This document shows, in pieces, positions 50,332 through 54,520 of a stretch of DNA of 64,000 nt; within the stretch, counting starts at the first letter, position 1; every line of letters starts with the position of its first letter. This DNA comes from a phage: the NCBI GenBank assembly GCA_012441205.1, contig GCA_012441205.1_4705.1; one strand, 5' to 3'. Made by a program: the position numbers and the translations under genes. The notes below the pieces were generated by a model. That model searched no databases, was not told the DNA's origin, and saw nothing but the letters and a program-made list of their open reading frames with translations.

Positions 50332-50556
50332 TTAGCAATGGTTGTTAGTTGCTTCTATTTCGTCAAGATAAGGTTCTACGTCATCGCCCTCCACGAATTC
50401 GTTGAACCAACAGTCAATAGTGGAAATAACCGGTGACTGGTGTTCACATTTCTTAGATACCTTAAAAGGTACGTTATTATCCATCATACCGAGTTCGGGT
50501 CGAAAACGCCCGAAATGTTTCGCAGTCCAAATGTCTGGGACGATATGGTTGTTCAT
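50332..50556 (-). CDS. RNAP beta-prime N-terminal subunit, exon 3 (joins 52532..51282 + 50931..50917 + 50556..50332)
   Basis: Begins ATG 50554-50556, MNNHIVPDIW...MMDNNVP, aligning with E. coli RpoC QMAVHVPL...MMSTNNILSP immediately after NADFDGD; ORF-track TTG start at 50568 rejected. Confidence 0.6.
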   Translation of the reverse strand: MNNHIVPDIWTAKHFGRFRPELGMMDNNVPFKVSKKCEHQSPVISTIDCWFNEFVEGDDVEPYLDEIEATNNHC

Positions 50557-50916
50557 CAATATCTTCAATACGAATCGCTACTTCGTATCCGCAGCATTAC
50601 CTGCAGCTCCTGGTGTTACCAGGATGTTGAGAGTATATCATGTCCATATTCCAAATGGAACGTAGGACTTCCGCGCTGGATCTCGCTTGAGACCACTTAC
50701 TCGTTGAACGTTCTCCTAAAAGGAGCTTCGCTGCTGATTGGACATTGTTACGTACGGTAGGCGTCCCACTAAAGGGATTTTCATTGAAGCCGCGTACATC
50801 CGTTACCTTGTTTCTACCTTATCGGTTCCTCTTACGAGGCGTAACGGCTTTAGCCTATTCCAGCAATTCACGGAATGCATATTCTCCTTTTCAGGAGATA
50901 AGGCCATGGCTCTGGC
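50557..50916 (-). ncRNA. intron 2 (group I-like, ORF-less, 360 nt), paralogue of intron 1
   Basis: 5' exon ends in U, intron ends in G; conserved blocks and covarying hairpins shared with 50932-51281; separates micro-exon from exon 3. Confidence 0.6.
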
Positions 50917-50931
50917 ATCACCGTCAAAGTC
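50917..50931 (-). CDS. RNAP beta-prime micro-exon encoding catalytic DFDGD
   Basis: Minus-strand gactttgacggtgat = D-F-D-G-D, in frame with flanking exons under the proposed junctions. Confidence 0.65.
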
Positions 50932-51281
50932 CACGTATCTTCAGTATGAATCGCTACTTCATACCCGCAGCATTACCTGCAGCTCCTGGTGTTACCAGGA
51001 CGGAGAGATCATCTCATCACCCACGAAGGGTGTTCCGCGCTACCCTCAGCGAATTCGAGGGACATGATCGTTGAACCTTCCACCGATGATCGATGGCTAG
51101 GCTGCTGATTGGACATTGTGCGTTGGGGTGGCATCCTGGTTCAGGACTGTCATTGAAGCCTCCCAACATCCACTCACTTATTTCCGCCTCATCGGCTCCC
51201 ACAAGGGCAGAGTGGCTTTAGCCCGTCTCAGCAATTCACGGAATTCAAGCTCTTCCTTTCGGAAGGCAGGGCCTCATTTGA
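50932..51281 (-). ncRNA. intron 1 (group I-like, ORF-less, 350 nt)
   Basis: Begins right after codon GCU (Ala of ...GYNA) at 51282; ends in G before the micro-exon; paralogous to intron 2. Confidence 0.6.
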
Positions 51282-52532
51282 AGCGTTGTATCCCTTAAGG
51301 ATCATCACGCTTAACCCGATGGTGTTATCCTGCGGATCGCGTTTAACCTTGGTGATTTCAAGACATTGGTTACTGCTTCGGTCAAGTGATGGGTTTCGAA
51401 CAAAGCCACACACAATCCCATCGAACGGTGTATCAGCAATAAGCTCATCGTGCAGCTCGCTCATCATTGGATGATAATTACGGACATGTTCCGCAACGAA
51501 CGCACGTGCTGCTCTTGGCGAATAACCACGATGGAATAACTTGGATTGGATATGTTCTTTATTGGTTAAAGTAAATGGTGCGTATGGGAAATGCAGATGA
51601 TAATAACGATGGTTTGCTGTTATCGAACTGATTACGGTACGCGTGGTGAATGGATGTAATGTACCTAATATGTTTTTACGTGTGATACCTTTCTTCTTAC
51701 CAATGAACTCATCGAAAATTGCTGCGTGGTATTGCAGTAGCTTCAATTGTACTTTCGCCATCCAGTTTTCTTTCTTTCTGGCGCTCAAAGGTGTTGTTGG
51801 GTGATAGATACTATTCAACGTACCGATAGCATCGATCGCACCTTCCATTTTGCTATCTGCATAACGACCGGTTGGCGTATTCTCGATAACGAACATCATG
51901 GCCGCAGGAAAGCTGATATACTGACTGAAGAACTTATCACGATGGATACGGATGAATTCTCGTAGCGTGTCAACTTTCTCCGTGTTCTTCGGTCCACGTA
52001 ACGTAGGTCCTTTATACAAGATCTCCATGATGCGATCGAAGTTCTGTATAAAGCTATTTACGCCACGTCGTATCCCGAATACATCGAATTGCTGCTCCAG
52101 ATAGTTCTTGAGTTCGATGGGTCGTTTTACATTTGGACGGTAACTGGCATCAATGAGCCACGTCATCGTTTCAAAGCTTTTGATATTCAACTCGCTTGCC
52201 AGCACGAGATGGACCAACGGGTTAATGAACGCATCAATTCCTTCAGGAACACGCGCCCAAACCGTCGAACGAATCTCTTGTTCTGCTGGATAGGTTACAA
52301 CCGTTTTACAGTTCGGACACACCGTACCGAGCAGCTCACCACGATTGTAGAAACCACAACCACATTGTGGTGTGATATCCAACGTATCGCTGGAGTAAAC
52401 ACGGGTGATAAAACTGTTTAATTTCTTCTTCTCTTCGACGACTTTTGTATCGTAATCATTCAACAAAATCGGCGTGAAAGGAAGTTCTGCGAGCTGTCTA
52501 TCGAAACTCACGATATCGAGCATGATGGCCAT
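51282..52532 (-). CDS. RNAP beta-prime N-terminal subunit, exon 1
   Basis: Zinc ribbon CGCGFYNRGELLGTVCPNC; GKKKGITRKNILGTLHPFTTRTV (E. coli [23 protein letters not shown]); RNPSLDRSSNQCLE (NRAPTLHRLGIQAFE); LSVMILKGYNA (LHPLVCAAYNA). The ORF-track tail to 51228 is intron read-through. Confidence 0.7.
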
Positions 52533-52574: not shown

Positions 52575-52598
52575 GGGAGGGAGGTTGCCCTCCCTCCC
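52575..52598 (-). terminator. GC hairpin terminator between 631-aa gene and beta-prime gene
   Basis: gggagggagg-ttgc-cctccctccc. Confidence 0.45.
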
Positions 52599-52624: not shown

Positions 52625-54520
52625 TTAGAACAGGTTGAATGCCCCACCCATGTTGTTAACGCCAACATTCGGACGATCGCTACGTGCGTAGATGTTACCG
52701 GAGATGTTACCCAGACCACGAGCACGTGCTGCCATGTTACCACGAACAGCGGTACCTGCCAGATGCTGGATGTTCTCAGGACGGATGGTGAAGCCAGCAT
52801 CAGCAGCGGCCTCGATCAGCGCCTGCAGTGCTAACGGATCGAAGTCGTAACGCATTGCCCAGCCGGTTTGTTCCCAGCTACCAGACAGAACACGATCAAT
52901 GATTTCGTGACGAGCGACAACACGCTGAGACATCGTCATATCGGTACGGTCGAAGCTGTCTTCCCAAGCTTCTACGGTATCCGGGTTAGTGATGTTCATC
53001 ATGTACAGATCGTCCATATCACGAATATCGTGACGGTGACCATCCTGGTGGTTATAATGACCCAGCGGGATACGGTTACCGGTAGCGTAGACCAGTGGTG
53101 CGCCGTACTGATATTTCTTGCTGAAGCAACCCAGGGTAGTATCATCGAAGGCACGGAAGAGTGCTTTGTAACCTTCGGAGATTTCCCGGACTTCACCTTC
53201 AACTTTGCCCGTATAGATCTTCTCAGCCGCCGGGATCATACGCAGCAGCCAGCTGTATTCGCCTTCTTCCGGTACGTCGATAGAAATCAGCAGAGACGGA
53301 TACAGTACCTGTTGCAGGAACTTGTAAATCTGCTCGTTGGTTTGAGTAGACAGATCCAGCGGTGCGGTAACTTCCGGATCCAGTACCATCGCCAGAGCAC
53401 CCGGGTTATGCGGACCAATACCACGAGCAGCGTTGCTGATTAAAGACTGTGCCCACGCCATACCGCTGTTCAGCGTAGCGATGGTGCCAATCAGACCCAA
53501 CACGAAAGTGTTCGGCGTGAACGCATCCAGCTCCAGCGGGTAAGCGCTGGTCATCACGTAACGCGGTTGGTATTGTACAGTCGGCGGTACCGGATAACCG
53601 TTAACCAGAACAGGGCCTTGGTTGAAGGTCGGGTTCTGCGGGCTGTAGGTCAGGTCAATGTAACCGGTGGTTGCGACCAGACGCTGCTGACTATCGTAAT
53701 CGCTCATCGCTTGACGGATGCGGTTAGAGATAGTTACAGTGATGTCAGAACGCACAGGGTTACCAACAATATCGCTGTCCTGCATACCGCTGGTGTTGTA
53801 CTGAACGCTGCTGATTGGCTGATCGCTTGCCATCATGCCCAGGTTGAACTGCGGCAGACCCAGTTTATCGCCGAGACGGATTTCGATCGCGGTTTGGATT
53901 GCGTTATCTGCAGCAGACAGCAGGGTGGTTGCCAGATGCGCAGATTCAGCGGTGATTTCATTGGTCACCACAGCCAGACCAGCGATACGAGCAGTACCAT
54001 TAGACTTACCACCGATAGCTGCATACATTGCCGCCATGACTTCGTTGATGAACGTACCGTTCAGGTTATCAACCCAGGTACGCGGCACCAGAATGTTACC
54101 ATGCGGGCCTTGTTCTTCACGACGCGGCAGCGGAGCCAAACCGGCAACCAGTGGAAGCACATAACCGAAGAAGTGGTTATGGTCACCAACTTTTGCACCG
54201 CTCATAACAACCAGGGTCGGATACGGTACACTGTATTGGTTAGGATCGACGGTCACCATGATGAAGTCGTCTTTGAATCCTTTATCTTCCAGTTCTTTTT
54301 CCATCAGACGACGGAGATTCAGTACCTGCTCGGAGCCAGTATTACGGCTAATACGACGGCTCAGTGTACGGTTGATCGTACGCATCGTATGAGTTACTTT
54401 AGGCTGGCCAGCAAAATCTGCAGCGGTTTCCAGCGCCTCATCAGCACGTTGTGCGGTGCGGGTTTCAGCTGCACGAATTTCTACATTATCGTTACCGTTA
54501 TTACGTACGTCTAAGCCCAT
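52625..54520 (-). CDS. candidate phage-nucleus shell protein (chimallin-like); otherwise abundant early protein of unknown function
   Basis: 631 aa; own TATATTAC promoter-like motif 70 bp upstream and own terminator; immediately upstream of the beta-prime N-terminal gene; no motif-level confirmation. Confidence 0.4.
   Translation of the reverse strand: MGLDVRNNGNDNVEIRAAETRTAQRADEALETAADFAGQPKVTHTMRTINRTLSRRISRNTGSEQVLNLRRLMEKELEDKGFKDDFIMVTVDPNQYSVPYPTLVVMSGAKVGDHNHFFGYVLPLVAGLAPLPRREEQGPHGNILVPRTWVDNLNGTFINEVMAAMYAAIGGKSNGTARIAGLAVVTNEITAESAHLATTLLSAADNAIQTAIEIRLGDKLGLPQFNLGMMASDQPISSVQYNTSGMQDSDIVGNPVRSDITVTISNRIRQAMSDYDSQQRLVATTGYIDLTYSPQNPTFNQGPVLVNGYPVPPTVQYQPRYVMTSAYPLELDAFTPNTFVLGLIGTIATLNSGMAWAQSLISNAARGIGPHNPGALAMVLDPEVTAPLDLSTQTNEQIYKFLQQVLYPSLLISIDVPEEGEYSWLLRMIPAAEKIYTGKVEGEVREISEGYKALFRAFDDTTLGCFSKKYQYGAPLVYATGNRIPLGHYNHQDGHRHDIRDMDDLYMMNITNPDTVEAWEDSFDRTDMTMSQRVVARHEIIDRVLSGSWEQTGWAMRYDFDPLALQALIEAAADAGFTIRPENIQHLAGTAVRGNMAARARGLGNISGNIYARSDRPNVGVNNMGGAFNLF

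Follow-up and report, generated by a model that had tools for sequence, protein, structure and literature searches.

How does a jumbo phage encode the catalytic centre of its RNA polymerase when the reading frame for the preceding residues stops just short of it? The question is raised by the minus-strand gene at 52532..50332 of a 64-kb stretch of phage DNA (the window; contig GCA_012441205.1_4705.1), which encodes the β′-N subunit of the non-virion RNA polymerase (nvRNAP), a homologue of phiKZ gp55. Its first open reading frame (ORF) matches β′ as far as ...LKGYNA and then continues for 17 codons to a stop, not the 21 counted in an earlier, model-made reading of the sequence (the original prediction). 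We conclude that the gene very probably contains two group I introns, paralogous and without endonucleases, intron 1 (i1) and intron 2 (i2), set 18 nucleotides (nt) apart around the codons for DFDGDA, and that these are mobile introns that must both splice if the polymerase is to be active.

Protein continuity and exact junctions

The phage behind the window is a Goslar-like chimallivirus, the region having 94.8% nucleotide identity to Escherichia phage vB_EcoM_Goslar, a nucleus-forming jumbo phage. The exon-1 product has 100% amino acid identity to Goslar gp247, and the gene adjoins that for chimallin in an order that matches phiKZ gp54/gp55. The ORF from which the original prediction set out (51228..52532, minus strand, 434 residues) is present, and the continuity that it proposed, from ...LKGYNA through DFDGD (50931..50917) into the ORF starting at ATG 50556, is borne out at the protein level. 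The joined product aligns with phiKZ gp55 (PDB 7ogp_A; E = 2e-73, query residues 21–475) unbroken through NADFDGD, and matches the Pfam family RNA_pol_Rpb1_2 at residues 371–430. The exon-3 product aligns with residues 443–495 of 7ogp_A, the part derived from gp56.1 of a chain named PHIKZ055 + PHIKZ056.1. Full-length homology including NADFDGD, together with chimallin adjacency, places the product in the phiKZ gp55 family, the homologues of which occur in 307 phage records. DFDGD is the Mg-binding aspartate triad of β′. In the mechanism that we propose, each intron would fold as a complete group I ribozyme and then excise by two guanosine-initiated transesterifications, and only the doubly spliced mRNA would encode the 497-residue subunit with its aspartate triad.

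The original prediction named an uninterrupted gene in related genomes among its tests, and intron-less alleles were found for each of the two sites. In three relatives with i1 only (L127, L131 and L132), the i2 site reads GACTTTGACGGTGACGCG ATGAAC uninterrupted (consensus GACTTTGACGG(T/C)GAC GC(G/A) ATGAACAAC). A fourth (L129) carries one intron, termed X, further upstream. It is continuous as ...GATTTCGACGGGGACGCG ATGAAC, with the i1 site and the sites of two further introns of relatives, A and B, all empty, and reads AT AAT GCT GAT TTC GAC GGG GAC GCG ATG AAC across them, so that the empty i1 site is GCT|GAT. The boundaries proposed for i1 (50932–51281, 350 nt) thus stand. At the other site, i2-less relatives read GGTGAC GCG|ATG AAC, which places an Ala codon between DFDGD and M. 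The micro-exon is therefore 18 nt (50931..50914, DFDGDA) instead of 15 nt, and i2, previously given as 50557–50916 and 360 nt, becomes 50913..50557 and 357 nt, its junction having moved by 3 nt.

Protein alignment agrees with this correction: with the Ala codon the alignment to phiKZ (NADFDGDQLNL) and to AR9 β′ is gapless, and without it a one-residue gap opens against phiKZ gp55. The window and Goslar differ only synonymously here (GAT GCC versus GAC GCT), and the bases beyond diverge freely. Both introns end in G, as had been noted. A final U in both 5′ exons, which had been claimed as well, holds for i1 (GCU) and fails for i2, the 5′ exon of which, in the 18-nt micro-exon, ends in C. A junction shifted by 1 nt (GC|...U|G ATG) was rejected, as the intron would then end in U rather than G.

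Fold and covariation of the inserts

The two inserts are structured RNA with in-frame stops. Their paralogy, proposed from shared blocks, is evident in a blastn alignment of 356 columns with 70.5% identity (E 4.5e-29). Every shared block listed in the original prediction is present, as are its three compensatory hairpins; the blocks correspond to P3–J3/4–P4, P5′–P4′–P6 and P9–P9.1, and the hairpins to P2, P9.2 and a P5 sub-hairpin. The core 15-mer TTCCGTGAATTGCTG has exactly two occurrences in the window, against 0.18 matches (at most two mismatches) expected by chance, and searches of the 64-kb window found no further copies of introns of the i1/i2 type.

A covariance-model search, one of the checks suggested at the outset, gave full-length matches to the Rfam model Intron_gpI (RF00028) for i2 (30.4 bits) and i1 (30.1 bits), with E-values of 4e-5 and 5e-5 when 3.5 kb was searched and of 7e-4 and 1e-3 over the whole window, both scores lying under the gathering score of 50 that sets family membership. 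Consequently, an Rfam scan of the whole window at the gathering threshold returned no match, the introns emerging only with an E-value cut-off, and a routine scan would miss both of them. The related introns score 46.9 bits (Goslar A), 30–33 bits (X) and 75.6 bits (phiKZ).

The intron class had been left open for want of a visible P1 or P7; P1 with its guide sequence, P7, J8/7 and the terminal G could all be placed. Twelve intron sequences (four of i1, eight of i2/B) with their exon flanks were aligned with MAFFT (alignment A2). The orthologues came from Goslar, two IMG/VR genomes (L104 and L124) and eight metagenome contigs sharing exon 3; a scan of IMG/VR with the 15-mer drew mostly unrelated contigs, the relatives among its matches being Goslar and L104 only. 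The structure, laid out by hand on this alignment, has 84 pairs in 17 helices (1008 cells) and comprises P1, P2, P3–P5, a three-way P5 extension (two small hairpins and an A-rich strand), P6, P6a, P7, P8, P9, P9.1 and P9.2, with a P3/P7 pseudoknot and one hairpin between P7 and P3′. Paired cells make up 98.1% of the total, compared with 35–43% when the 3′ partners are slid, and 30 of the 84 pairs have changed on both sides, compared with 1–2 in the slid controls. None of 500 shuffles reached the observed pairing and covariation values.

The conserved core P3–P8, with its pseudoknot and covariation, is that of a group I intron. In P7, three Watson–Crick pairs (U-A, G-C and A-U) are found at one position (pair 228–298) and two (C-G and U-A) at the next (229–297). 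P7 also keeps an invariant G226-C300 with an adjacent bulged C225, the guanosine-binding site that characterizes the class. J8/7 reads AUGAGA, AUGAUA or AAGAUG against the consensus AAGAUA. All five pairs of the hairpin between P7 and P3′ (P7.1) covary; there is one such hairpin, the subgroup IA feature being P7.1/P7.2. A one-base misalignment of i1 against B by MAFFT (columns 157–175) led us to leave two P5 sub-helices (133–135 and the 147–161 hairpin) out of the counted structure; both are paired within each clade when the clades are read separately.

Comparison of the two genomes that carry both introns (window and L124) points the same way. Their i1 sequences differ at ten positions, of which four are unpaired (three in loops, one in a junction), three are one-sided changes that keep the pair, two are compensatory and the last disrupts a pair that closes a loop, a pattern that argues for continuing selection on the fold. 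Their i2 sequences have only three differences, all at unpaired positions. The reading of the two ORF-less paralogous inserts as group I introns flanking a catalytic micro-exon is thus supported (Table 1).

Table 1. Coordinates of the exons, introns and core intron helices of the nvRNAP β′-N gene, and of the upstream neighbour, in the 64-kb window
Feature	Position	Strand	Remarks
Exon 1 of nvRNAP β′-N	51282..52532	-	417 codons, ends ...LKGYNA, last codon GCT
Intron 1 (i1), group I, ORF-less, 350 nt	50932..51281	-	terminal G at 50932
P3 of intron 1, pseudoknot with P7	51243..51237 / 51039..51033	-	
P7 of intron 1	5′ strand 51071..51065, 3′ strand 51011..51006 (span 51006..51071)	-	invariant G-C by bulged C
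Micro-exon, 18 nt, GAC TTT GAC GGT GAT GCC = DFDGDA (GACTTTGACGGTGATGCC)	50931..50914	-	
Intron 2 (i2), group I, ORF-less, 357 nt, orthologue of Goslar intron B	50913..50557	-	terminal G at 50557
P3 of intron 2	50875..50869 / 50675..50669	-	
P7 of intron 2	5′ strand 50704..50698, 3′ strand 50635..50630 (span 50630..50704)	-	
Exon 3, MNNHIVPDIW..., 74 codons + stop	50332..50556	-	from ORF listing
Chimallin (nuclear shell protein), 631-residue ORF, upstream neighbour, context only	52625..54520	-	Goslar annotation gp246

The P8 helix of i2 (50642–50668, minus strand) includes CCUACG...UAUGG, a near match to the 11-nt GAAA-tetraloop receptor. As the loop of L2 is GAAA, this suggests an L2–P8 tertiary contact in i2. 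P8 of i1 is plain, unlike this receptor-like helix.

Several points weigh against the reading of both inserts as splicing group I introns. Neither Rfam score reaches the membership threshold. The 12 sequences behind the covariation fall into two clades, so that many of the covariation events amount to a single inherited difference between i1 and B. P5 is weak, with 82% of its cells paired, and intron 1 has no obvious P10. A further point concerns the 5′ splice site of i2.

Guide sequences and rival gene models

The 5′ splice site of group I introns is marked by a near-universal U·G pair. The P1 of i1 (GCU|UC / GAGGC) has this wobble. In i2 of the window and L124, P1 is GCC|A / UGGC, with C-G in its place. 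U·G is found in 10 of the 12 family members (pair 9–18), the C-G being confined to these two genomes. P1 covaries among GCU|UA/UAGGC in Goslar, GCC|A/UGGC in the window i2 and GCU|UC/GAGGC in i1, and the guide CAUGGC of i2 is complementary at every base to GCC|AUG, the joined exons (P1 and P10). The Rfam alignment used the P9.2 hairpin of i1 as the 'P1' of i2; we rejected this and adopted the P1 formed by the guide sequence, for which there is covariation. We flag the C-G splice site as the one truly unusual molecular feature here.

In the Tetrahymena ribozyme, C-G in place of U·G raises P1 undocking about 80-fold (PMC1891724), and i2 may accordingly splice poorly, the last of the points that weigh against the main reading. 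It is possible, though we consider it unlikely, that i2 of the twin-intron lineage is impaired or depends on a helper (a protein or RNA cofactor), with the subunit made inefficiently, or that the allele is decaying. That C(−1)-G is restricted to the two twin-intron genomes among the 12 aligned sequences, and weakens P1 docking to such a degree in Tetrahymena, would fit this explanation. It must be set against the status of nvRNAP β′ as a core gene that is presumably essential, the recurrence of the architecture in two diverged full-length genomes (the L124 contig is 237.5 kb), the location of all three i2 differences between them at unpaired positions, and the P1 and P10 complementarity (GCCAUG / CAUGGC), which is unusually complete and may compensate.

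The guide sequence also bears on the gene model of the original prediction, in which the micro-exon is 15 nt (DFDGD only), intron 2 is 50916..50557 (360 nt) and both 5′ exons end in U. A U before GCC would suit the usual rule, and the spacing to 'VP' equals that of E. coli DFDGDQMAVHVP, which was the argument originally given for it. No guide sequence, however, pairs with ...GGUGAU|, leaving this model without a P1, whereas CAUGGC pairs perfectly with GCC|AUG; alleles without i2 carry the extra codon (GAC GCG/GCA ATG); the window and Goslar keep that codon synonymously (GAT GCC and GAC GCT) where the following bases diverge; and the model forces the one-residue gap against phiKZ gp55 that the 18-nt model avoids. 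We regard it as very improbable. The two models would differ in their tryptic products, GYNADFDGDAMNNHIVPDIWTAK for 18 nt and GYNADFDGDMNNH... for 15 nt.

Still less probable is the absence of splicing altogether, in which case the pieces would be subunits translated separately, or remains of a pseudogene in decay, and the inserts ordinary intergenic DNA: exon 3 does start with ATG, the pieces are listed as separate coding sequences in the Goslar annotation and RNAP subunits of jumbo phages are often split, but the catalytic DFDGD would be lost, relatives have uninterrupted coding sequence at each site, phiKZ gp55 is one chain across the same point in its solved structure, and the segments show RNA-structure covariation and not neutral drift.

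If both introns splice, as we favour, the 18-nt exon has a double role, as 3′ exon for i1 and as P1 substrate for i2, which makes sequential splicing probable. Skipping of that exon would give a catalytically dead subunit. Exon skipping in the group I introns of Twort is reportedly the subject of a 1999 paper by Landthaler and Shub, going by its title. We saw no evidence for a regulatory rather than a parasitic role of the twin-intron arrangement.

Intron distribution, mobility and relation to known systems

The original prediction treated the locus as though it stood alone, but Goslar, other Goslar-like genomes and phiKZ also have introns inside the same 27 nt. Twelve Goslar-like genomes show five architectures, each with one to three introns from X, i1, A and B at four sites: i1 + i2 (the window and L124), i1 only (L127, L131 and L132), X + A + B (L104, L126, L128, L130 and L133), A + B (Goslar) and X only (L129). 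An intron-free locus was found in none of the 12. The three-intron genomes have two 13-nt micro-exons. The insertion sites are GGN T|AT for X, AAT|GCT for the phiKZ intron, GCT|GAC for i1, GAY TT|C for A and GCN|ATG for B/i2, and these five sites, four Goslar-like and one of phiKZ, account for the span of 27 nt. Presence/absence polymorphism with precise empty sites, as seen for i1, A and B, is the signature of mobile introns. Neither i1 nor i2 encodes an endonuclease, as originally stated (their ORFs have at most 61 residues and no Pfam match); HNH_3/NUMOD1/I-HmuI-like ORFs are found only in Goslar intron A (336 residues, HNH/NUMOD1) and in intron X of L129 (323 residues, I-HmuI-like).

How might two related introns have come to lie so close together? 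Both i1 and B follow A-Y-G-C-U and both have a GGC guide, and i1 is an old paralogue of B. The common ...AYGCU| target and GGC guide are consistent with ectopic insertion directed by the internal guide sequence. The copies have also become mosaic. A 36-nt block (P9 and P9.1) is identical in the two window introns (50589–50624 and 50965–51000, minus strand) and differs in Goslar intron B; P1–P2 of i1 are of the Goslar-B type, and P9–P9.1 of the window i2 are of the i1 type. These mosaics point to recombination between the paralogous introns. We take the introns to be selfish mobile elements that piled up at a conserved active-site sequence, the i1/B copies having perhaps arisen by guide-directed ectopic insertion and having later exchanged segments.

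In the 12 loci, i1 never occurs together with X or A, the sites of which lie 10 and 5 nt away, and B is found alongside i1 as well as alongside X and A. The pattern may reflect lineage, mutual exclusion or immunity to the HNH endonucleases. A more speculative extension, which we consider improbable, is that the pile-up on the DFDGD codons goes beyond parasitism and records an arms race in which co-infecting Goslar-like phages compete. The HNH nicking endonucleases of X and A would target this stretch of a rival's essential polymerase gene. Introns that lack an endonuclease, such as i1 (at 10 nt from the site of X and 5 nt from that of A) and B, would persist by splitting the target sites and thereby conferring immunity. 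The occurrence of i1 without an X or A partner across the 12 genomes is a hint in this direction. On this view, near-identical twin ribozymes would bring exon skipping with them, and the divergent P1 of i2, with its C-G pair, may act to suppress it.

Among known systems, phiKZ gp55/gp56/gp56.1 is alike in gene, in chimallin neighbourhood and in having the same motif interrupted by a group I intron. That the phiKZ nvRNAP β′-N gene contains a group I intron encoding an HNH endonuclease has been reported (PMC11512511). In the genome (NC_004629; L135 3669–5040), the site reads CCT AAT|1372 nt including gp56 HNH|GCT GAT TTT GAC GGC GAT, and the intron thus sits between N and A of NADFDGD, 3 nt upstream of the i1 site. 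Its endonuclease ORF is in the 5′ part, the ribozyme core follows, and its P9.1–P9.2 3′ tail is homologous to those of i1, i2 and X. It differs from the arrangement in the window in being a single 1372-nt intron with a homing endonuclease, without a second intron or a micro-exon.

The closest genome, Goslar (NC_048170), also has two introns and a micro-exon between exons identical in protein; the window i2 has its orthologue there in intron B (86% identity). Its upstream intron A, by contrast, has only about 40% identity to i1 (unrelated sequence), carries an HNH ORF and is inserted 5 nt further downstream (GAC TT|C), leaving a 13-nt micro-exon, CGACGGTGACGCT. The Goslar RefSeq record (L001 4434–6457) has two distinct genes here, 'RNA polymerase beta subunit' (gp247) and 'hypothetical protein' (gp185), and marks intron A only (Intron_gpI and HNH/NUMOD1); intron B (about 355 nt) and the micro-exon CGACGGTGACGCT are unannotated, and literature searches found no account of either. 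Goslar-type annotations thus split one essential gene into a named subunit, an unannotated gap and a hypothetical protein, missing intron B and the micro-exon, and the corrected gene model gives the true 497-residue catalytic subunit.

PhiPA3 gp210 offers another parallel: a group I intron interrupts a multisubunit RNAP gene of this chimallivirus directly after the conserved catalytic aspartates, and Birkholz et al. (2024) showed with its endonuclease that such introns can matter in phage–phage competition (PMC11620839). That gene encodes the β subunit and has a single intron with an HNH endonuclease, whereas the window introns have none. Introns in chimallivirus RNAP genes are known from phiKZ gp55, PhiPA3 gp65-66 and gp210 (PMC11512511, PMC11077065 and PMC11620839), as are multi-intron phage genes (PMC11878797). 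Exons of less than about four codons between self-splicing introns 'occur regularly in mitochondrial genes' (fungal cox1; PMC10352661); these organellar mini-exons are not viral, and no paralogous twin introns flanking an active site are reported among them. A limited literature search turned up no report of a phage exon as short as 18 or 13 nt, or of one consisting of an enzyme's catalytic motif, and literature searches found no description of Goslar-type multiple introns or of the C-G splice site. Phage introns are known to sit in active-site codons, and the arrangement is a variant of this habit.

The locus is a dense natural experiment, with five sites in 27 nt, micro-exons of 13–18 nt, guide-sharing paralogues with exchanged segments and a natural C-G splice site. 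Guide-directed ectopic transposition, interference between neighbouring ribozymes, exon skipping and protection from rival endonucleases all become testable in a tractable E. coli phage, one in which the phage nucleus physically separates transcription from translation.

Two side observations concern other DNA. Four unrelated environmental viral contigs that the core 15-mer pulled in (L052 2891–4657; also L065, L061 and L062) each have three to four tandem group I introns (Rfam 81–91 bits), which seem to be situated within a capsid-like gene, separated by short exons; phage genes with several introns may be more common than annotations show. In the window, a perfect GC-rich hairpin, GGGAGGGAGGG-CAA-CCTCCCTCCC (52575–52598, minus strand), lies between the chimallin stop and the β′-N start; although without a T-run, it resembles a terminator or processing site, and it is kept in L104.

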